NCBI GenBank assembly: GCA_963783575.1
Contig: CAWAOD010000003.1
Span: 224,001 to 288,000 of the forward strand
Source: an uncultured Spirochaetota bacterium
GTDB taxonomy: Bacteria > Spirochaetota > Brevinematia > Brevinematales > JAOACQ01
Length of the DNA: 64,000 bases
Direction: 5' to 3'
Shown: in pieces, positions 3,175 to 21,168 of the stretch
Layout: every line of letters begins with the position of its first letter
How positions within the stretch are numbered: the stretch's first letter is position 1
Position numbers and translations under genes: made by a program
Notes under the pieces: model-generated
What the model was told of the DNA's origin: nothing
Database searches by the model: none
What the model saw: only the letters and a program-made list of their open reading frames with translations

Positions 3175-4728
3175 GTGAAAATTTTATATTTAAATTATTT
3201 ATTAATCGCATTGTCTTTTCTGGGTTATGTTTCCTGTTCGGCAGGGGACCCTGATAAAATAACTCAGAGCCAAAGCAGGAACAATCCCAACGACCCGGGC
3301 GGCGGGAATTATTCGAGCGCCGCAGGTTCATCGACTGGTAATTCATCATCGATTAACGGCAGTTTGAGTGCGTCCAGTGCAGATATTTTGCCTAATGCGC
3401 CTGTAGTAAGCGGAACAAGCCCAACACTTAATAAAATGCCGACCTGGAACTGGGTTTCGGGCGGAGGTGGAAGCGGAACATACCGGTATAAACTGGACAG
3501 TTCCGATCTTACAGCAGGCGCAGTAGAAGCTGCAGCCGTAAGCTTTACTCCGGCATCAGCGCTTTCTCTGGATAATCATACCCTGTATGTTCAGGAACGT
3601 AATTCGTCCGGGAACTGGTCTGTAAGCGGCAATTATACCATCCTTATTTCGGATTGCATACCCGTTGGCTGGATCGGCGGTGGAAGTGACGGGTGGAAGA
3701 CCAATTCCGATCCTATAAGCGGTGGCGATTACCGGTCATTCAGGTATCCCGGTGATGTTTTTGTAGACAGCGCCGGAAATATCTATATATCTGATTCTAT
3801 AACCAATAGAATTTCAAAATGGGACTCAAGCGGAACAGCTTTAGGATGTATCGGCGGGGGAAGCGATGGATGGAAAACCGGAAATTCACCGATTTCTGCC
3901 GGAACAGATTTACGGAGTTTCAAGAATCCCGAGGGAGTTTTTGTCGACAATTCAGGAAATATATATGTCGCGGATTATAACAATCACAGGATCAGCAAAT
4001 GGGATTCTTCCGGAACAGCCTTAGGATGGATCGGCGGTGGATACGACGGATGGCAGACGGGAAGCGCTCCTGGCGCTGCGGGAAACTTTAAATATTTCAG
4101 CGGACCGTCATCAGTCTGTGTAGACGGATCTGGAAATATTTATGTTGTCGATTGCGGTTATGTAAGCAAGTGGAGTTCAAACGGCGTTGAAGTGGGCTGG
4201 ATAGGCGGGGGAAGCGACGGATGGCAGACAGGCATGCATCCGGGCACGAACACTGATTACAGGAGTTTCAGTTATGCCCATGGCATCTGCATTGACGGCT
4301 CGGGTAATCTGTATGTCACCGAGGATTATAACAACAGGATCAGCAAATGGGATTCTTCCGGAACTGCTTTGGGCTGGATTGGCGGTGGTAGCGACGGGTG
4401 GAAGCAGACAGACGGCGCAGTATCGAATGTTGATTACAGGAGCTTCAGGCTCCCGCGGGATGTTTCGGTGGATGCGGGGGGAAATATCTATGTCGCGGAC
4501 TGGTATAACAACAGGATCAGCAAATGGAATTCTTCCGGTACGGCCTTGGGCTGGATCGGCTATGGAAGCCCGGGGTGGAAAAAAAACGATATTCCTTCAA
4601 CATATTCCGGGACCATTAGGGATTATGATTTTTTTAATTACCCGATTGGCATATTTGTCTGGAATTCTACCAATATCTATATTGCCGAACAGAATAATTA
4701 CAGAATATCCAAATGGCAGCAGCCGTAG
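3175..4728 (+). CDS. Lipoprotein with shared N-terminal tag, Ig-like domain and NHL-repeat beta-propeller
   Basis: GTG start after AGGAGG. Signal peptide with SC at C21, then AGDPDKITQSQSRNNPNDP. Six NHL-like repeats (F..P.GVFVD.SGNIYVAD..N.RISKW). Confidence 0.85.
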   Translation: MKILYLNYLLIALSFLGYVSCSAGDPDKITQSQSRNNPNDPGGGNYSSAAGSSTGNSSSINGSLSASSADILPNAPVVSGTSPTLNKMPTWNWVSGGGGSGTYRYKLDSSDLTAGAVEAAAVSFTPASALSLDNHTLYVQERNSSGNWSVSGNYTILISDCIPVGWIGGGSDGWKTNSDPISGGDYRSFRYPGDVFVDSAGNIYISDSITNRISKWDSSGTALGCIGGGSDGWKTGNSPISAGTDLRSFKNPEGVFVDNSGNIYVADYNNHRISKWDSSGTALGWIGGGYDGWQTGSAPGAAGNFKYFSGPSSVCVDGSGNIYVVDCGYVSKWSSNGVEVGWIGGGSDGWQTGMHPGTNTDYRSFSYAHGICIDGSGNLYVTEDYNNRISKWDSSGTALGWIGGGSDGWKQTDGAVSNVDYRSFRLPRDVSVDAGGNIYVADWYNNRISKWNSSGTALGWIGYGSPGWKKNDIPSTYSGTIRDYDFFNYPIGIFVWNSTNIYIAEQNNYRISKWQQP

Positions 4729-4745
4729 AAAAGAGGAGGAAGTTT

Positions 4746-6140
4746 GTGATAAGAATAAACTTTTATCTTTTATTAATCCTTGGTTTTACTTTCGTTTTGA
4801 TTTCCTGCGCCGCAGGCGACCCTGATAAAATATCACAAAGCAACAGCAGGAACAACCTCAACGACCCGAATGGAGGCAATTATTCCTCCGTTAGTTCCGT
4901 AACAAGTTTTTCATCTTCTTCCACGGGAGGTACAGTAAGTCCAACAGTCATTTCCGCAAGTCCGCAAAATAATGATCAGGGAGTCTGGATTTCACAAACA
5001 ATAAATATAACATTCTCTAAAACAATGAATAAAAATCTTACAACGAATGCGTTTTCTCTAAAAGACCCGGGGAATTTCAACATTGCCGGGACCTTTCAAT
5101 GGGTAAACAATGATCAGAATCTGGGGTTTACTCCATCCGGAACTCTTTCATATGATAAGGAATATACTATGACCATAGGAACAGGAGCGGAAGATATATC
5201 GGGTAATCCTTTGCCGGCAGCGTTTACAAGCAAATTTACAACCGGATGGGCTCAGGCGACGACAAACGGAGGATGGCCCGGAAGAACATTATCTACGTGC
5301 GTTTCATTTAAAAACAGCCTGTGGCTTTTGGGCGGCTTTTCCACTACAATTTCCAATAACGATGTCTGGTGCAGTTCCGATGGGGCAGACTGGAATCAGG
5401 CTATTGAAGTCGCGCCCTGGATTGGAAGACATTGGCATACAAGCGTTGTATTTGATAATAAGATATGGGTTATGGGCGGCTGTTGTATCAATGGAGATTG
5501 GACAAATGATGTCTGCTACAGTCCCGATGGAACAAACTGGTATCAGGCCACAGCCGCTGCCGGATGGAGCGGGAGAGAAGGACATACCAGCGTTGTATAT
5601 GACGGCGGTATGTGGGTCATTGGAGGCTTAGATACAACAGGCCATTATAAGTCAGATGTCTGGAATAGTGCCGATGGAACAAACTGGTTTCAAATTTCAC
5701 CATCTGCCGGATGGAGCGTGCGATACGACCATGCCAGCGTTGTTTTCAATAATGCGATATGGGTTATGGGCGGTTGTGACGGTAATTATATGAACGATGT
5801 CTGGTACAGTACCGACGGTGTTAACTGGAGCCAGGTTACGGCTTCAGCCCCCTGGTCAAAAAGATCGGGATTTTCAGCCGTAGTCGCCGGTCAGAAGATA
5901 TGGATTATGGGTGGTAACAACTCAACAACCGGTTATCAGACAGATGTTTGGTATAGTTCCGATGGAACAAACTGGATGCAAGCTATGGCTTCGACAGGAT
6001 GGGGAGGCAGGGAATGGCAAGTATGTACTGTGGATAAAATGTTCGTCAGTATTATTCAGTCGATTGACAGAATCTGGCTTATCGGCGGTTACCAAGACGG
6101 GCAGGGAAAGAAAAGCGATGCATGGTGGATACTACCGTAA
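4746..6140 (+). CDS. Lipoprotein with shared N-terminal tag, Big_5-like Ig domain and Kelch-like propeller
   Basis: GTG at 4746 follows GAGGAGG and is in frame with ORF 4713. C21. PTVISASP...ITFSKTM...GAEDISGNPL Ig-like domain; repeated H.SVVF...IWVMGG...DVWYS.DG.NW. Confidence 0.85.
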   Translation: MIRINFYLLLILGFTFVLISCAAGDPDKISQSNSRNNLNDPNGGNYSSVSSVTSFSSSSTGGTVSPTVISASPQNNDQGVWISQTINITFSKTMNKNLTTNAFSLKDPGNFNIAGTFQWVNNDQNLGFTPSGTLSYDKEYTMTIGTGAEDISGNPLPAAFTSKFTTGWAQATTNGGWPGRTLSTCVSFKNSLWLLGGFSTTISNNDVWCSSDGADWNQAIEVAPWIGRHWHTSVVFDNKIWVMGGCCINGDWTNDVCYSPDGTNWYQATAAAGWSGREGHTSVVYDGGMWVIGGLDTTGHYKSDVWNSADGTNWFQISPSAGWSVRYDHASVVFNNAIWVMGGCDGNYMNDVWYSTDGVNWSQVTASAPWSKRSGFSAVVAGQKIWIMGGNNSTTGYQTDVWYSSDGTNWMQAMASTGWGGREWQVCTVDKMFVSIIQSIDRIWLIGGYQDGQGKKSDAWWILP

Positions 6141-6168
6141 AATTTAATTTTAATTATCGGAGGCTCAT

Positions 6169-7251
6169 ATGAATTTAAAGTCATTAAAATATCCATTGAT
6201 TACGGCGATTTTGTTTATATTAACATCCTGCTCTGCGGGCGATCCCGATAAAATATCGCAAAGCAACAGCAGGAACAACCCTAACGACCAGAACGGAACT
6301 GCTTATTCCAGTATAAGCAGTTCTGCAGGTGTATCTTCATCTGCAGGTACATCTTCATCTGCAGGTGTATCTTCATCTACAGGCTCATCTTCAACTGCTA
6401 GTGCTTATACAGTGGGGGCAAACTGGACTCAGGCAACCGCTGCGGCGGGTTTCTCACCCCGCGGGGGGCATGCAAGCGTTGTTTTCAACAATGCCATGTG
6501 GGTAATCGGCGGATTTGATTCTTCAAACATATATAATGATGTGTGGTATTCCAAAAACGGCACAAACTGGACTCAGGCAACTCAAAACGCGGGGTTCAGT
6601 ATACGGGATTCATTCAGTTGTCTGGTTTTTAAAGGCAGCATGTGGGTGATCGGCGGAAGATCCTACACTTATACAAACGATATCTGGTATTCAAGGGATG
6701 GGACAAACTGGAGCCTGGCGACGGCCGCTGCCGCATTCTGCCCGCGTGGCAGTTTTGCCGGCGTGGTCTATAACAATATGATGTGGGTAATTGCCGGAGG
6801 ATATTCTCTAAGTGGAGAAACCAATGATGTCTGGTATTCAAGCGACGGGACAAACTGGTCAAGAGCGACGGCAGGGGCTTCGTTCTCCACGCGTAAGGAA
6901 GCCGTGTGTCTGACTAATAACAATTTGATGTGGCTGATCGGAGGGAGTATAAATGGCGAGGCATGGTATTCAAGCGACGGCATCAACTGGGCCTGTTCAA
7001 CCGCAAATGCTCCATATTCATACAGATTCGAACATTCAAGTGTGGTTTACGACAACAAAATGTGGGTAATATGCGGCATCAACGTTTCCGGAATATACTA
7101 TTCAGGCAACGGCACGAACTGGACCCTGGCGGGTAACCCGGAAATAACCAATAAATACGGACATACGACATTGGTTTATAACAATGCCATGTGGACGATT
7201 GCCGGTTATAACGAAAACGGAAGCACTAATGATGTATGGTATGCGCAGTAA
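6169..7251 (+). CDS. Lipoprotein with shared N-terminal tag and Kelch-like propeller
   Basis: RBS GGAGG, C21, tag, Ser-rich linker, six R..H.SVV.NN.MWVIGG...NDVWYS.DG.NW repeats. Confidence 0.87.
   Translation: MNLKSLKYPLITAILFILTSCSAGDPDKISQSNSRNNPNDQNGTAYSSISSSAGVSSSAGTSSSAGVSSSTGSSSTASAYTVGANWTQATAAAGFSPRGGHASVVFNNAMWVIGGFDSSNIYNDVWYSKNGTNWTQATQNAGFSIRDSFSCLVFKGSMWVIGGRSYTYTNDIWYSRDGTNWSLATAAAAFCPRGSFAGVVYNNMMWVIAGGYSLSGETNDVWYSSDGTNWSRATAGASFSTRKEAVCLTNNNLMWLIGGSINGEAWYSSDGINWACSTANAPYSYRFEHSSVVYDNKMWVICGINVSGIYYSGNGTNWTLAGNPEITNKYGHTTLVYNNAMWTIAGYNENGSTNDVWYAQ
6322..6393 (+). repeat. 18-bp tandem repeat x4 encoding a Ser-rich linker
   Basis: Units tctgcaggtgtatcttca / tctgcaggtacatcttca / tctgcaggtgtatcttca / tctacaggctcatcttca. 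Confidence 0.9.
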
Positions 7252-7297
7252 AGATATCAATAAAATATATGTTTCAATTGAAAATCAGGAGGAACAT

Positions 7298-8257
7298 ATG
7301 ACGATAAAGATACATATAATTTTACTATTACTAGGTTTTCTGCTATTTACGCTTTCCTGCGCCGCGGGCGATCCCGACAAAATATCTCAGAGCAACAGCA
7401 GGAACAATCATAACGATCCTAACGGAACCGCTTATTCCAGTGCTGTCAGTACATCGAGCGCTTCCAGTTCATCGGCGGGCAATTCATCTTCCAGCGCAAG
7501 CTCAAGTTCTTTTAACCCGCAGAATTTGCATGTCATAAAGACAGTAGATACAGGCGACGAAGCCTCCGGGGTTTGTGTCAGCGGGAATTATGCTTATATG
7601 GCCGATACCGGCGGGCTTAGGATTATTGATATAACCAGCCTGGCCGGCGCCTCACTTACAAATACTGTAGCTATAAGCGGCTATGCTCAGGGAGTCGCTG
7701 TCAGCGGGAATTATGCCTATGTGACCACATACAGCAGCGGGGTTCAGATCATAGACATATCAAGCCCGGCAAGCGCTTCTATTATTAAAACTGTTAATAC
7801 AGGCTATTCTTATGGAGTCGCTGTAAACGGGAATTATGCTTACGTGGCCGGTAATAACGGGCTTCTGATTATAGACATATCAAGCCCGGCAAGCGCTTCT
7901 ATTATTAAAACTGTTAATACAGGCGGTTCGATGGATGTCGCTGTCAGCGGAAATTACGCTTATGTGGCTGATGAAAGCGAGTTTCGTGTTATAGATATAT
8001 CAAACCCGACCAATGCTTCTATTTTAAAGACAATAAGTACAATGAGTATTGGTGGTGGAATTTATGTCAGCGGAAATTATGCGTATATGGCTGCCGGAGA
8101 TGCAGGCCTGTATGTTATGGATATATCAAGCCCTGCCAATGCTTCTATTTTAAAAGTAGTTGATACAAGTATAAGCGGCGGCTCTATTAAAGTCACTGTA
8201 AGCGGGAATTATGTTTTTGTGACTGGTTTTAGCGGGTTTGAGGTAATCGGGCAATGA
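7298..8257 (+). CDS. Lipoprotein with shared N-terminal tag and LVIVD-repeat propeller
   Basis: ATG at 7298 after AGGAGG. C21, tag, repeated GVAVSGNYAYVA....GL.IIDISSPASASI. Confidence 0.87.
   Translation: MTIKIHIILLLLGFLLFTLSCAAGDPDKISQSNSRNNHNDPNGTAYSSAVSTSSASSSSAGNSSSSASSSSFNPQNLHVIKTVDTGDEASGVCVSGNYAYMADTGGLRIIDITSLAGASLTNTVAISGYAQGVAVSGNYAYVTTYSSGVQIIDISSPASASIIKTVNTGYSYGVAVNGNYAYVAGNNGLLIIDISSPASASIIKTVNTGGSMDVAVSGNYAYVADESEFRVIDISNPTNASILKTISTMSIGGGIYVSGNYAYMAAGDAGLYVMDISSPANASILKVVDTSISGGSIKVTVSGNYVFVTGFSGFEVIGQ
7751..7924 (+). repeat. Two identical 54-bp direct repeats 120 bp apart (LVIVD blade duplication)
   Basis: atagacatatcaagcccggcaagcgcttctattattaaaactgttaatacaggc at 7751-7804 and 7871-7924. 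Confidence 0.9.
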
Positions 8258-8312
8258 ATTATATTTGCATAACGAGATTATTTAAATAAAAAAATAAACG
8301 GAGGTATTTTAT

Positions 8313-8900
8313 ATGTTAAGGAAATTGGTTTTTGCTCTGCTTTTTGTAATGTCTGCGGGTCTATTTTACGCCGAACAGGATTTGCCTGCCGCTTCTTTTC
8401 CGGGACTGAATACACAAATTCTCGCATTCAACCCGGCCTTTTCCGTTGATTTACAGAGTTGTTTTGGTCAAGATAAAGGTATTTATGAAGCTACTACAAA
8501 AAAATCCACAACACCAATTCAAAAGAAGCCAACACCGGCTAATAATGGCGGAGGACCTTCGATTCTGAATATATGCGGATATGTTTTAATAGCCGCCGGA
8601 GTCGGCGGTCTTGGAGCGGGATATTATTTCGATACTCAAGCGGCAGCCAATTTGAAGGATGCACAGAAGAATTACGATGATTATAAAAATGCGACAAGCG
8701 GATTTGATGATAAGTGGAGCGCTTATCAGGATAAACTGAACCAGGCCAGACTGAATATTCAGTACCGGAACTATAGTTATATAGGCGGAGGAGTTGCCCT
8801 CGGTGCAGGCCTTATACTAGCCTTTATACCATCCGGCCCTAAAAAGAAATATAGTATTTATGTAACACCGGATTCTATATATGCTGTTTACAGGTTTTAG
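8313..8900 (+). CDS. Secreted hypothetical protein with two Gly-rich hydrophobic segments and a C-terminal beta-hairpin ending in Phe
   Basis: RBS GGAGG. Sec-type signal peptide, then GYVLIAAGVGGLGAGYYF, a charged helical segment, YIGGGVALGAGLILAFI, and the end YSIYVTPDSIYAVYRF. Confidence 0.8.
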   Translation: MLRKLVFALLFVMSAGLFYAEQDLPAASFPGLNTQILAFNPAFSVDLQSCFGQDKGIYEATTKKSTTPIQKKPTPANNGGGPSILNICGYVLIAAGVGGLGAGYYFDTQAAANLKDAQKNYDDYKNATSGFDDKWSAYQDKLNQARLNIQYRNYSYIGGGVALGAGLILAFIPSGPKKKYSIYVTPDSIYAVYRF

Positions 8901-9012
8901 TGATAAGGGGAATACAGGCTGTTTCATCCGAATAATCCGGCGTTGGGGCTTAATATTCGACCGGATTTGGAATGAAAAATTTTCTTATTAAAAAATGAAG
9001 CAGCTTTTATCC

Positions 9013-9059
9013 GGAGTTCCGCCATGTTTTATTTTAATATGACGGAACTTCACGTTTTT
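9013..9059 (+). terminator. Possible intrinsic terminator or attenuator hairpin
   Basis: ggagttccgccatgtt...aatatgacggaacttc stem followed by acgtttttatt. Confidence 0.4.
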
Positions 9060-9094
9060 ATTGTTAAAATATTGATATTTAATGGAGGCTGTTC

Positions 9095-10093
9095 ATGATA
9101 AGAATAGTAACCGGTTTTTGTATGGCGATTGGAATATCATTTATGTTGTTTTCCTGTGCCGCGGGCGATCCTGATATAATATCGCAGAATAACAGCAGGA
9201 ATAACCCGAACGACCCGAAAGCCGGAAATTCTTCCAGCGGCGGCTCGCAGGCCGGGGGTTCAAGCAGTACCGGCGGTGGGACAAGCAGCTCCGTGACTAC
9301 CACCAATACATCTTCTCAAGGAACGTCTCTGGCAGCCGGTCCTGTCTTAACAGTACCTTCCACCGCTTCAGGCAACTTCAATATATCCTGGACATTCACC
9401 TGGCCTTCATTGACCGGCGGACAGGATCATTATGAATTGGAAAAATCATTACAATCACAAGCCGGGTATTCAATTGCCGAATCGACTCCGAACGATACAA
9501 GGACATCTCCATATATCACCGTCTATAGTCCGGTTGCCAGCGACTATGGCAATACTCTTTATTTCAGGGTAAGAGCTCGTACAAGCTATGGGTATACTGC
9601 ATACAGCCAGGAAAAATCCGTTGCCCTAACGCAGCAGCAGCAAAAGTATTATATTAAATTGGTAAATAATATGTCCGGCGGCGGAAGTGATGAAATTGTC
9701 CAGGTAAGAATTAGCAGCGTGGGAAGTGAAATATTTAAAGATGCTAATGAGCTTTTATCTCCTGATGATTATACATCGCCCATCTTGCCTGGTGATTCTA
9801 TAAATCCCGGGGGTTACCAGACATGGGATGTAACCGCCATAAAATCCAGATATTATGTGTTTATTGGGCTTGGAATGTGGGATTATGATGCGGTATTAAA
9901 TAATGAATGGTTCAAAGAACTTCAGAATGATCAAAATTATTATATTTATTGTTCCTTTTATATAGACAGCCAGACAAGTACTACGGTGACAGTTACCGTA
10001 GGATGTGATGCAAATAATAATATAAAGGCCTTCTTTGATTTTGGAGGTTCGGCGGGCTTTGTTGCATCAACAACTGATCCAACGCCAAATTAA
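9095..10093 (+). CDS. Lipoprotein with shared N-terminal tag, FN3-like domain and unknown beta-rich C-terminal domain
   Basis: RBS GGAGG, C21, AGDPDIISQNNSRNNPNDP. FN3 hallmarks ISW...YELE...LYFRVRA...GY.AYS. Confidence 0.85.
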   Translation: MIRIVTGFCMAIGISFMLFSCAAGDPDIISQNNSRNNPNDPKAGNSSSGGSQAGGSSSTGGGTSSSVTTTNTSSQGTSLAAGPVLTVPSTASGNFNISWTFTWPSLTGGQDHYELEKSLQSQAGYSIAESTPNDTRTSPYITVYSPVASDYGNTLYFRVRARTSYGYTAYSQEKSVALTQQQQKYYIKLVNNMSGGGSDEIVQVRISSVGSEIFKDANELLSPDDYTSPILPGDSINPGGYQTWDVTAIKSRYYVFIGLGMWDYDAVLNNEWFKELQNDQNYYIYCSFYIDSQTSTTVTVTVGCDANNNIKAFFDFGGSAGFVASTTDPTPN

Positions 10094-20367: not shown

Positions 20368-21168
20368 TTAATAAATTCCGCCGACAGCCGCCCCTGTAAC
20401 GGTTTGACCGGGAATGTTCGTGCCGTTAGTTTGTTTTGACCAGAATTCAGCAAAAACTATCTGGTAATCATGGGTCCCTAGATTCAGTCCTGCGTTTGCC
20501 CAATAATTAACATGATTTTTAAAAGTTATAGTCCTGCCGGCACTTTCATAAAAACCTTCCGTAATATCCATATACTGCCAGAAACTCGCTGTTCCAATAA
20601 TGGAAGGTTTGTTAACCCTGTAATTCTTCCATGCACCATAAGCGGCATTATCAGAACCCATAAATCCCACATAAGTATGTTTTTGACCGTCAATATCGGG
20701 ACTATTAACCGGGTTTTCTTTAGCGCCCTCATGTTCGATGACATAATATTCCACGAGCGGGTTTTTCGTCCAGCCATATAGGCCGAAAGCTCCGCCATAG
20801 CTGTTACTCCAAACTTTGTTCGTGATGGTTACAACCCTGCTCGACGACCCGGTTTGCCAGCCTTTGCCGATAACAGTCCCGCCGCAAAAATTGGTAACGC
20901 CGATACTAAAGCCTTTACCGCCATCCATAGCCGCTTTGATTGTGCCGGTGGCGCCATCACTTTTCCAATAAGTCCAGAAATAGCCGCCATCACTGCCAGT
21001 GCCGGGGTTTACGGCGCCTTTTGTCATAAACACATCATCACCCTGGGATGACGATTGAGCCAATGCGGATTGCTGTTGTGTGGCAGTTAGAGAACATCCG
21101 GCTAAGAACATAACAGTAACCGCTGTTACTAGAACCACAGAGACTAACACCATACGTTTAAAACTCAT
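20368..21168 (-). CDS. xynA: Endo-1,4-beta-xylanase, glycoside hydrolase family 11, lipoprotein
   Basis: LAGC lipobox; GYFWTYW, GKGWQTG, LYGWTKNPLVEYY (nucleophile Glu), PSIIGTASFWQY, HDYQIVFAE (acid/base Glu). Confidence 0.9.
   Translation of the reverse strand: MSFKRMVLVSVVLVTAVTVMFLAGCSLTATQQQSALAQSSSQGDDVFMTKGAVNPGTGSDGGYFWTYWKSDGATGTIKAAMDGGKGFSIGVTNFCGGTVIGKGWQTGSSSRVVTITNKVWSNSYGGAFGLYGWTKNPLVEYYVIEHEGAKENPVNSPDIDGQKHTYVGFMGSDNAAYGAWKNYRVNKPSIIGTASFWQYMDITEGFYESAGRTITFKNHVNYWANAGLNLGTHDYQIVFAEFWSKQTNGTNIPGQTVTGAAVGGIY

Follow-up and report, generated by a model that had tools for sequence, protein, structure and literature searches.

Organization of the locus

The window analyzed here, a 64,000-nucleotide stretch of a contig from an uncultured Spirochaetota bacterium, contains five co-oriented open reading frames starting at 3175, 4746, 6169, 7298, and 9095. 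As claimed in a preliminary description of this DNA, each encodes a lipobox Cys at residue 21 and then exactly the 21-mer quoted there (hereafter, the tag). A 195-aa gene is embedded in the array, the features of which are as follows:

3175..4728, + strand: tagged lipoprotein 1, 517 aa, with a signal peptide, Cys21, the tag, a Ser/Gly linker, a probable Ig-like domain (no Pfam match), and an NHL beta-propeller
3235..3297, + strand: tag copy 1, Cys to Pro, with the core RNNPNDP at 3277-3297
4746..6140, + strand: tagged lipoprotein 2, 464 aa, with a Big_5 Ig domain and a Kelch-type propeller
4806..4868, + strand: tag copy 2, core RNNLNDP
6169..7251, + strand: tagged lipoprotein 3, 360 aa, with a Kelch-type propeller
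6229..6291, + strand: tag copy 3, core RNNPNDQ
7298..8257, + strand: tagged lipoprotein 4, 319 aa, with an LVIVD propeller
7358..7420, + strand: tag copy 4, core RNNHNDP
8313..8900, + strand: partner gene, 195 aa, with a signal peptide, low-complexity linker, helical-hairpin domain, and C-terminal beta-hairpin ending in Phe
8562..8822, + strand: predicted helical hairpin of the partner, aa 84-125 and 131-170, in its long (+1 heptad) form
8850..8897, + strand: predicted C-terminal beta-hairpin of the partner, with alternating hydrophobic residues and a terminal Phe (beta-signal-like)
9095..10093, + strand: tagged lipoprotein 5, 332 aa, with an all-beta passenger of no Pfam family, FN3-like as a weak lead
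9155..9217, + strand: tag copy 5, core RNNPNDP

Promoter and terminator counts at the locus were no different from those in shuffled sequences. Pfam supported the NHL, Big_5 plus Kelch, Kelch, and LVIVD assignments made for the passengers earlier, but gave no match for the Ig domain proposed in gene 1 or the FN3 domain proposed in gene 5; for the latter, FN3 is a weak Atlas lead (0.81), and a single-sequence structure model was uninformative (pLDDT 38). The passengers do differ, as first described, although genes 2 and 3 share the same Kelch-like repeat type and there are therefore four types rather than five. Across the other loci described below, passengers of tagged lipoproteins include Kelch, NHL, RCC1, clostripain, HmuY-like, laminin G, and beta-helix domains, all of them types that are usually extracellular.

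Selection on the tag and its origin

Fourteen of the 21 tag positions are invariant across the five genes. When all six frames of the 4.9-Mb genome were searched with a tag HMM, only the five window genes matched (E 8e-18 to 4e-15, values that are low by construction; next E 0.21), and thus the other lipoproteins of the window lack the tag, as had been stated. Over the 10 gene pairs, the tag (84% amino-acid identity, dS 1.65, dN 0.08, dN/dS 0.05) is far better conserved than the signal peptide (24% and 0.88) or the next 15 codons (42% and 0.49), the figures for these flanks being approximate because they were compared ungapped.

A functionless leftover of a local 5′ cassette duplication could also produce a shared peptide. 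Consistent with such an origin, a 119-nt DNA repeat recurs at all five gene starts, 71-76% identical to the reference copy, the genome has other tandem lipoprotein paralogues, and the exact 21-mer was found neither in 60 relatives (best other E 0.014) nor in the genome collection, nor in a word-indexed protein set, so that the full tag appears nearly private to this locus. However, synonymous sites in the tag have diverged as much as those of the flanks while its dN/dS is 0.05, the core of the tag is conserved across phyla, and two further proteins with other passengers, P0011 and P0013, carry long forms of the tag. The five tagged genes share 1-6 of 15 signal-peptide residues; in the other tether-sharing paralogue groups of this genome, the signal peptide is common too (8-15 of 15 residues). 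The tag is kept by purifying selection on the protein, not by recent DNA copying, and duplication, which explains the origin of the five copies and not their conservation, is refuted as a sole explanation, with scarcely any probability left to it.

A short core motif linked to hairpin genes

The conserved signal is a seven-residue core, R-x-N-P-x-D-P, at the end of the tag, with the first 14 residues forming a locus-specific spacer. This core is widespread across phyla: a motif-only scan of GTDB genomes returned 121 loci, of which ∼97 are lipoproteins, mostly from the FCB group and Spirochaetota, with unrelated passengers and the core 5-16 residues past the lipobox Cys. A full HMMER scan with a wider motif returned 17 proteins; most were training sequences, and one was a chance ankyrin match. 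The dN/dS values and the cross-phylum loci partly support the earlier proposal, in so far as it takes the tag to be a peptide signal, here under selection, borne by lipoproteins whose passengers vary. The full 21-mer is nearly confined to this locus, yet the core is found in many phyla beside one family of hairpin genes.

In both Spirochaetota and the FCB group, tag genes tend to lie near hairpin genes, and the association was recovered from both directions. Among 15 loci chosen by the hairpin, 11 have an adjacent co-oriented lipoprotein bearing N-[PLEQ]-x-D-[PR], and the other four lack a canonical tagged neighbor. Among motif-chosen lipoprotein loci with wide flanks, a hairpin gene lies within 6 kb in 48 of 64, compared with none of 16 chance loci, although the hairpin HMM was grown on these same motif-chosen loci. 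Twelve of the 16 motif loci without a nearby hairpin were searched genome-wide and all 12 genomes encode one, four of them just past the fetched flank; none of 12 chance-match control genomes does. Held-out spirochaete motif hits gave a hairpin gene within 2.5 kb in 26/34, and eight of 35 held-out hits had none nearby (one cut by a contig end, one with no real motif). In the present genome, a hairpin gene lies within 7 kb of 6/6 motif-bearing predicted lipoproteins and 8/291 others, a count that draws on two loci only and a crude lipoprotein caller. The embedded 195-aa gene, proposed earlier as the probable partner, is thus backed by strong two-way gene-neighborhood evidence across phyla. The hairpin family is wider than the tag: two of the four hairpin genes in this genome have no canonical tagged neighbor, and among 19 Leptospiraceae hairpin genes the downstream lipoprotein carries a clear D-P remnant in only three and a partial one in two.

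The two components also covary in length. Hairpin arm length tracks the Cys-to-motif spacing in 76 of 79 pairs (rho 0.74, n = 79): where the spacer is at least 10 residues the arm is one heptad longer (17/17 pairs), and where it is shorter the arm is not longer in 59/62, the three exceptions being long-arm partners paired with short spacers; the thresholds of this comparison were picked after the data had been seen. On supported branches, only 2-3 of the contrasts behind the covariation are independent, and these run in the same direction (p 0.5).

Alternatively, the tag may be a self-contained signal or mini-fold, recognized by general machinery (Lol, Lpt, or a secretin system) or serving to stabilize the tether, with the hairpin linked through shared function or co-regulation and no direct contact. 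Post-Cys signals read by general machines are known (PMC5080379; PMC12802150; PMC13692018), this genome encodes one secretin, tagged lipoproteins without an adjoining hairpin exist, and many hairpins have no tagged neighbor. Such a signal, however, should mark many surface lipoproteins, yet only 6/297 predicted lipoproteins of this genome are tagged, all beside hairpin genes, and it leaves unexplained both the length covariation and the observation that tags are alike within one locus and unlike between loci of the same genome. We regard this alternative as rather unlikely.

The partner family

The partner is predicted to fold as two long antiparallel helices followed by a C-terminal beta-hairpin. 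In the model, the Gly-rich hydrophobic ends of the helical hairpin are adjacent, the arms are polar, and a near-invariant Tyr124 lies near the tip. No Foldseek match to solved folds was obtained at E ≤ 0.001, the best VIA hits (Z 11.3) were generic helical hairpins, and no relative of solved structure was found by sequence apart from one designed coiled coil (E 3e-4). Among 59 partner domains, 54 have Phe or Tyr as the last residue and hydrophobic residues at -3, -5, and -7, so that the family presents the sequence pattern, as a pattern only, of BAM substrates (a signal peptide plus a terminal aromatic beta-strand); Omp85 genes are present in this genome.

The partner appears to be a distant relative of DUF5683 and LIC11435. 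DUF5683 (PF18935) is matched by 13/59 partner domains (best E 2e-5), which suggests the same hairpin domain family at a distance, related to it and not a member (best relative 24.8 bits, cut-off 26.7 bits). The Leptospira LIC11435 family (NF047756) is matched by one partner at E 1e-14, and its members match the partner HMM in turn. Scored matches to both families fall below curated cut-offs, the window partner itself matches neither, and no function or partner has been described for either. Similarity to the Borrelia P13 porins (PF05628) was considered and rejected (hhalign probability 2.7% over 25 columns; no PF05628 match in this genome), and four loci from a metagenome scan with the partner were judged false, three of them being PilO-like genes in a type IV pilus context or look-alikes. 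Separately, Atlas matched the partner at 0.95 to a Bdellovibrionota-labeled cluster with ETRAMP on 21% of its members, and at 0.93 and 0.92 to unnamed ones.

The helices of the hairpin allow a different placement, in which the partner would be an inner-membrane or periplasm-facing scaffold, the tagged lipoproteins periplasmic, and the tag a signal for retention or assembly. In the window partner, two hydrophobic segments reach Kyte-Doolittle values of 1.8 and 1.7 (19-residue window) and could stop it in the inner membrane, and acidic residues shortly past the Cys recall inner-membrane retention rules (PMC12802150). Against this, the terminal Phe strand is conserved, the family median for the first helix is only 1.44 (37/59 below 1.6), and the conserved Tyr tip would face the cytoplasm, where covariation with the lipoprotein spacer would not be possible. 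This placement is very unlikely in our judgment.

N-terminal to the hairpin, partners vary considerably. A CsgG-like domain was detected in 5/13 spirochaete partners scanned, the matches spanning only profile positions ∼7-103 of 210; other partners carry caspase or TPR-like domains, and one has an OmpA-type peptidoglycan-binding domain ahead of the hairpin. The CsgG-like and PEGA domains that the preliminary description had suggested looking for were thus found, fused to or beside the partner. This architecture raises the possibility that the tag and hairpin do bind, but as the outer half of a trans-envelope signaling relay, in which the lipoprotein senses a ligand and the periplasmic domain of the partner signals to a kinase or anti-sigma factor. 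Many tag-hairpin pairs do sit in signaling operons: a common FCB cassette comprises a tagged lipoprotein, a GAF/sigma-54 activator, a Ser/Thr kinase with PEGA, and the hairpin protein; in two spirochaete pairs (L060 and L063) an ECF-type sigma gene lies upstream; and in this genome one hairpin gene (C6) precedes ECF sigma and FecR genes. The partners with CsgG-like, caspase, or TPR-like domains point the same way. In the window, however, the partner carries no such domain, just a short low-complexity linker, and the genes flanking the array include neither a kinase nor a sigma factor; moreover, minimal partners of 150-200 aa with tagged neighbors are frequent, and five different sensors on one bare transducer suit display better than signaling. 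A relay is, on this evidence, distinctly unlikely.

Comparison with known systems

For spirochaetes and FCB-group bacteria, the route of lipoproteins to the surface and their retention there are understood only in part (PMC7857515; PMC13692018). Slam is an outer-membrane protein encoded beside its lipoprotein clients and required for their surface display; it is absent from spirochaetes and Bacteroidetes, in which some other machinery is to be expected (PMC7857515). The present locus resembles Slam in that clients and partner are encoded side by side, but Slam consists of TPRs and a 14-stranded barrel, whereas the partner, predicted to be a helical hairpin plus two strands, has no SlipAM match, and the signal here is a linear post-Cys motif. 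No SlipAM gene was matched elsewhere in the genome, although control genomes gave no match either.

The lipoprotein export signal (LES) of Bacteroidetes, K-(D/E)2 or Q-A-(D/E)2 shortly after the lipidated Cys, likewise stands on lipoproteins with unrelated passengers (PMC5080379). LES, however, marks many lipoproteins by a loose pattern of charge and has no partner at each locus, the tag is restricted as noted above, and the LES pattern is matched by none of 83 tags, among them the five of the window. The T2SS/GspN sorting motif of Acinetobacter surface lipoproteins is GGG or ND(N/D) at positions 2-4 (PMC12802150); these positions are SAG or AAG in the window, and the core lies 5-16 residues out. 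No PF01203 (GspN) match was found in this 90%-complete genome, where the control was positive in only 2/14.

In curli, the N-terminal peptides of CsgA and CsgF engage a dedicated outer-membrane oligomer, CsgG, which the CsgG-like domains of some spirochaete partners recall. Curlin repeats were absent from the five proteins and from the genome (control positive in E. coli), and the partner is not a full-length CsgG channel: that of the window has no CsgG match, and in its relatives the match is limited to the first half of the profile. SusC/SusD and BtuB/BtuG partners are TonB-dependent barrels bound via large folded interfaces, whereas here a short portable motif precedes arbitrary passengers. 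In those systems, as proposed here, a cognate outer-membrane protein encoded next door holds a lipoprotein at the surface (PMC10404256). The tag thus matches none of LES, the T2SS motifs, Slam, or curli, and no description of a tag-hairpin system was found in the open-access literature searched.

A candidate docking system

The reading that we favor, and hold to be slightly better than an even prospect, is that the tag is a docking peptide, the core of which binds the tip of a cognate hairpin protein predicted in the outer membrane and thereby holds lipoproteins at the surface. We infer direct binding from the co-occurrence and the length covariation, and likewise infer the location and the export. 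With its signal peptide and terminal Phe strand, the partner would be inserted by BAM into the outer membrane, where it would probably be oligomeric; its variable N-terminal domains would stay periplasmic, and the polar arms between the hydrophobic segments would therefore face outwards. The lipid-anchored Cys would sit in the same membrane with the spacer running along the arms and the core at the Tyr-rich tip, an arrangement in which the dock would keep lipoproteins, with a range of interchangeable binding domains, at the surface of the cell. The whole 21-mer may be common to the five lipoproteins of the array because they share one partner. Several observations described above count against docking: the few independent contrasts, post hoc thresholds, and three exceptions of the length covariation; the hairpin genes and held-out motif hits that lack each other; the hydrophobic segments; and the signaling operons. 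Nothing in the analysis supports the polymerization signal that had also been suggested.

A bolder extension, unlikely as it stands, is that hairpin oligomers, unrelated to Slam, Lpt, and T2SS, form a translocon and display platform dedicated to lipoproteins; they would capture these by the tag, carry them through the outer membrane, and keep them on the outside, the arm length serving as a ruler that matches the spacer. If true, it would represent a new surface-lipoprotein sorting system common to spirochaetes and the FCB group and portable to any passenger via a tag of 10-20 residues.

The result is a concrete candidate in two parts, a seven-residue motif and a small family of partners, and the matching of arm and spacer lengths offers a built-in test. 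The dock, if right, would give DUF5683/LIC11435-like proteins a first function and would allow a class of surface proteins to be predicted from sequence; if the tag proves portable, it would also offer a compact display tool.

Conservation of the Tag and Its Core Motif

The five open reading frames and their tags, 21-residue peptides that begin at the lipobox cysteine and end in the core R-x-N-P-x-D-P or a close variant of it, were present exactly as the preliminary description had given them:

3175, 4746, 6169, 7298, and 9095: tagged lipoprotein genes
8313..8900 (+): 195-aa hairpin gene, the putative partner
20368-21168: untagged lipoprotein with a GH11 xylanase domain

All five are preceded by a Shine-Dalgarno-like sequence and encode a 20-residue signal peptide followed by Cys21. 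The tag is invariant at 14 of its 21 positions across the five copies, with a dS of 1.65 and a dN/dS of 0.05 over the 10 gene pairs, whereas the signal peptides share 24% identity (10 pairs); the tag peptide is therefore under selection, and a relic of gene duplication is highly improbable. The claim that other lipoproteins lack the tag extended to the whole genome (G000), which was searched and contained no sixth copy of the 21-mer. Crude prediction gave ∼260–300 lipoproteins in G000, many with Ser-rich tethers, so that it is the tag, and not the linker, that stands out.

Searches did not recover the exact tag from 60 relatives, the genome collection, or a word-indexed protein set; a long form occurs on two proteins from elsewhere (P0011 and P0013), where different passenger domains follow it. 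Paralogues of the 195-aa gene provided the lead to a more general motif: one, at C3:62734 in G000, lies directly 3′ of a very large Ig/beta-helix lipoprotein gene with R-N-N-P-Y-D in its tether. This tagged gene of ∼2070 codons, encoding Ig repeats and a beta-helix (L025:4345-10569; G000:C3:56344-62568), has a single in-frame stop after codon 374, reflecting a pseudogene, an assembly error, or read-through. A reverse scan of the GTDB collection with the DNA pattern hydrophobic-x-x-C-x(3-13)-R-[DN]-N-P-[LF]-D-P, blind to the partner, recruited 121 loci; they came from 44 of its 64 parts. By a strict regular expression, 95 were in frame, one being archaeal and due to chance, and three further true loci escaped it. 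Record titles named Ignavibacteria, Calditrichota, Cloacimonadota, Marinimicrobia, KSB1, Fibrobacter, Gemmatimonadota, Latescibacterota, Zixiibacteriota, Bacteroidota, and Spirochaetes, among others.

Linkage of Tagged Lipoproteins and Hairpin Genes

A five-sequence partner profile matched 12 of 300 spirochaete genomes, and 15 loci were taken with wide flanks. Eleven had a co-oriented, adjoining lipoprotein with N-[PLEQ]-x-D-[PR] 6–16 residues past the cysteine, three had a lipoprotein with a partial motif or none, and one lacked a tagged neighbor; passengers included Kelch, RCC1, clostripain, HmuY-like, NHL/FN3, Big_5, and laminin G domains. Eighty motif-chosen loci with wide flanks comprised 64 tagged lipoproteins and 16 chance loci, and a hairpin gene lay within 6 kb of 48 of the former vs. 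none of the latter, a count that is partly circular because the hairpin HMM was iterated on the same loci. For 12 of the 16 tagged loci without a nearby hairpin gene, genome-wide searches found one in every genome (in four, on the same contig just beyond the flank); the same search found none in 12 genomes with chance motif matches. A held-out set consisted of 35 new spirochaete motif-profile matches (E < 0.005) reaching the motif end of the model: for 19, a hairpin match was already listed no more than 2.5 kb away, and the retrieved sequence revealed one for eight of the other 16, giving 27/35, or 26/34 after removal of a pair duplicating a hairpin-profile locus. G000 has four hairpin genes, and all six tagged lipoproteins, vs. 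8 of 291 untagged predicted ones, were encoded no more than 7 kb from one of them. The suggestion that the 195-aa protein is the partner of the tag gains support from this linkage.

One Leptospiraceae genus has three lipoprotein genes with N-x-[FY]-D-[PQ] downstream of a hairpin gene, an arrangement resembling that in the window. A Leptospiraceae locus (L197:1086-7001, L212, L213, and L215) encodes a caspase-domain hairpin protein and, after it, three tagged lipoproteins, of which two were scanned and proved to be Kelch proteins. In Cloacimonadota (L075, L077, L090, L095, L099, and L100, around 3400-8600), a minimal hairpin–lipoprotein pair lies directly 5′ of a gene judged by eye to be UvrD/PcrA helicase-like, in all loci seen. 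Six tandem lipoproteins at L237:5973-10000, with a hairpin gene on the opposite strand, carry a post-Cys motif of another kind, C-x-x-x-K/D-T-C-S-x-x-D-[KR]-x-C, which may represent a second type of tag. On contig C4 of G000, a frameshifted gene encodes a CsgG-like domain and the hairpin (L026:1596-3998; G000:C4:35095-37497), beside an InlB-repeat and FGE-sulfatase lipoprotein without the motif and then an IS-like transposase ORF; this partner and lipoprotein may be decaying together. The fourth hairpin gene is first in an operon on C6 (L266:234-7553) with an ECF sigma factor, a FecR/PEGA/propeller protein, and an untagged Ig lipoprotein, adjoined by divergent laminin-G lipoproteins with near-identical N-termini.

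Predicted Structure and Length Covariation

An AlphaFold2 model of the partner (18-sequence alignment; mean pLDDT 87, strands 55–72) comprised a pair of long antiparallel helices, with a beta-hairpin at the C-terminus. The Gly-rich hydrophobic helix ends are predicted to lie side by side, and the polar arms bear Tyr121, Tyr124, Trp135, and Tyr138, with Tyr124 in 58 of 59 domains; a terminal Phe or Tyr with hydrophobics at −3, −5, and −7 occurs in 54/59. N-terminal domains differ among partners (none, CsgG-like, caspase, OmpA plus PD40, or TPR-like). The partner is a below-threshold relative of DUF5683 and the LIC11435 family (NF047756), and sequence and fold searches found no solved relative. 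The source organism is a spirochaete: members of the Leptospira LIC11435 and Borrelia P13 families exceed the cut-off in genomes of its phylum. Kinship of the partner with P13 was rejected by profile comparison. At L226:2200-5741, a LIC11435-family gene precedes a 789-aa lipoprotein whose motif is no more than degenerate; PMC11350617 reports that LIC11436 is an adhesin that binds fibronectin.

Covariation was assessed in 82 tag–partner pairs, from which two duplicates and one with a truncated partner were removed. Each arm mostly has one of two lengths that differ by a heptad (28 or 35 residues; 16 or 23). With thresholds chosen after inspecting the data, a Cys-to-Asn spacer of at least 10 residues accompanied a long arm in 17/17 pairs, and a shorter spacer went without one in 59/62 (rho 0.74; 0.75 among 54 adjacent pairs); the window's partner has a long arm and its tag a spacer of 16. 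A heptad spans ∼10.5 Å, equal to three to four extended residues. A weakly resolved tree implied eight arm and six spacer changes, with only two to three independent contrasts on supported branches, none opposite in direction (p 0.5). The covariation, its thresholds being post hoc, is suggestive but short of proof.

Proposed Function and Relation to Known Systems

In its working, the module is most like Slam–client pairs (PMC7857515), SusC/SusD-type pairs, and signals of the type of the Bacteroidetes lipoprotein export signal (LES; PMC5080379). By their defining tests, however, the window's tag matches neither a LES nor the T2SS motif (PMC12802150), and the tag–hairpin pair matches neither a Slam nor a curli system; a new translocon is a minor possibility. 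A loose precedent is given by PMC3482391, which describes lineage-specific conserved domains behind the lipobox of proteins whose C-termini vary. Searches of the open-access literature by motif, DUF5683, or LIC11435 returned no description of the pair. The tag is real and selected, and its core defines a multi-phylum lipoprotein–partner module, apparently not described so far, of a kind already known: a signal behind the lipobox that is paired with its own cognate membrane protein.

Several observations speak against docking of the tag on the hairpin protein. Some tagged genes are solitary, most Leptospiraceae hairpin genes and two of four in G000 (one of these frameshifted) lack a tagged neighbor, and many pairs are housed in signaling cassettes. 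Among alternative readings, a general sorting signal, for which post-Cys precedents exist (PMC5080379, PMC12802150, and PMC13692018), is unlikely, and a signaling relay is slightly less likely still. A recurrent FCB cassette (L074:1045-6131, L103:5961-12048, and L067:5742-12045) contains a tagged lipoprotein, a GAF/sigma-54 activator, a Ser/Thr kinase–PEGA protein, and a hairpin protein, often with a secreted protein and, in some lineages, an extra gene between kinase and hairpin. An inner-membrane scaffold, the other location considered for the partner, is quite improbable. Docking is the reading we somewhat favor: the partner, presumably oligomeric, would sit in the outer membrane with its arms outside and would bind the tag core at its tip, with any role in transport conjectural. 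One partner serving five clients would account for the first 14 tag residues common to all five lipoproteins, whose passengers would thereby be held at the cell surface.
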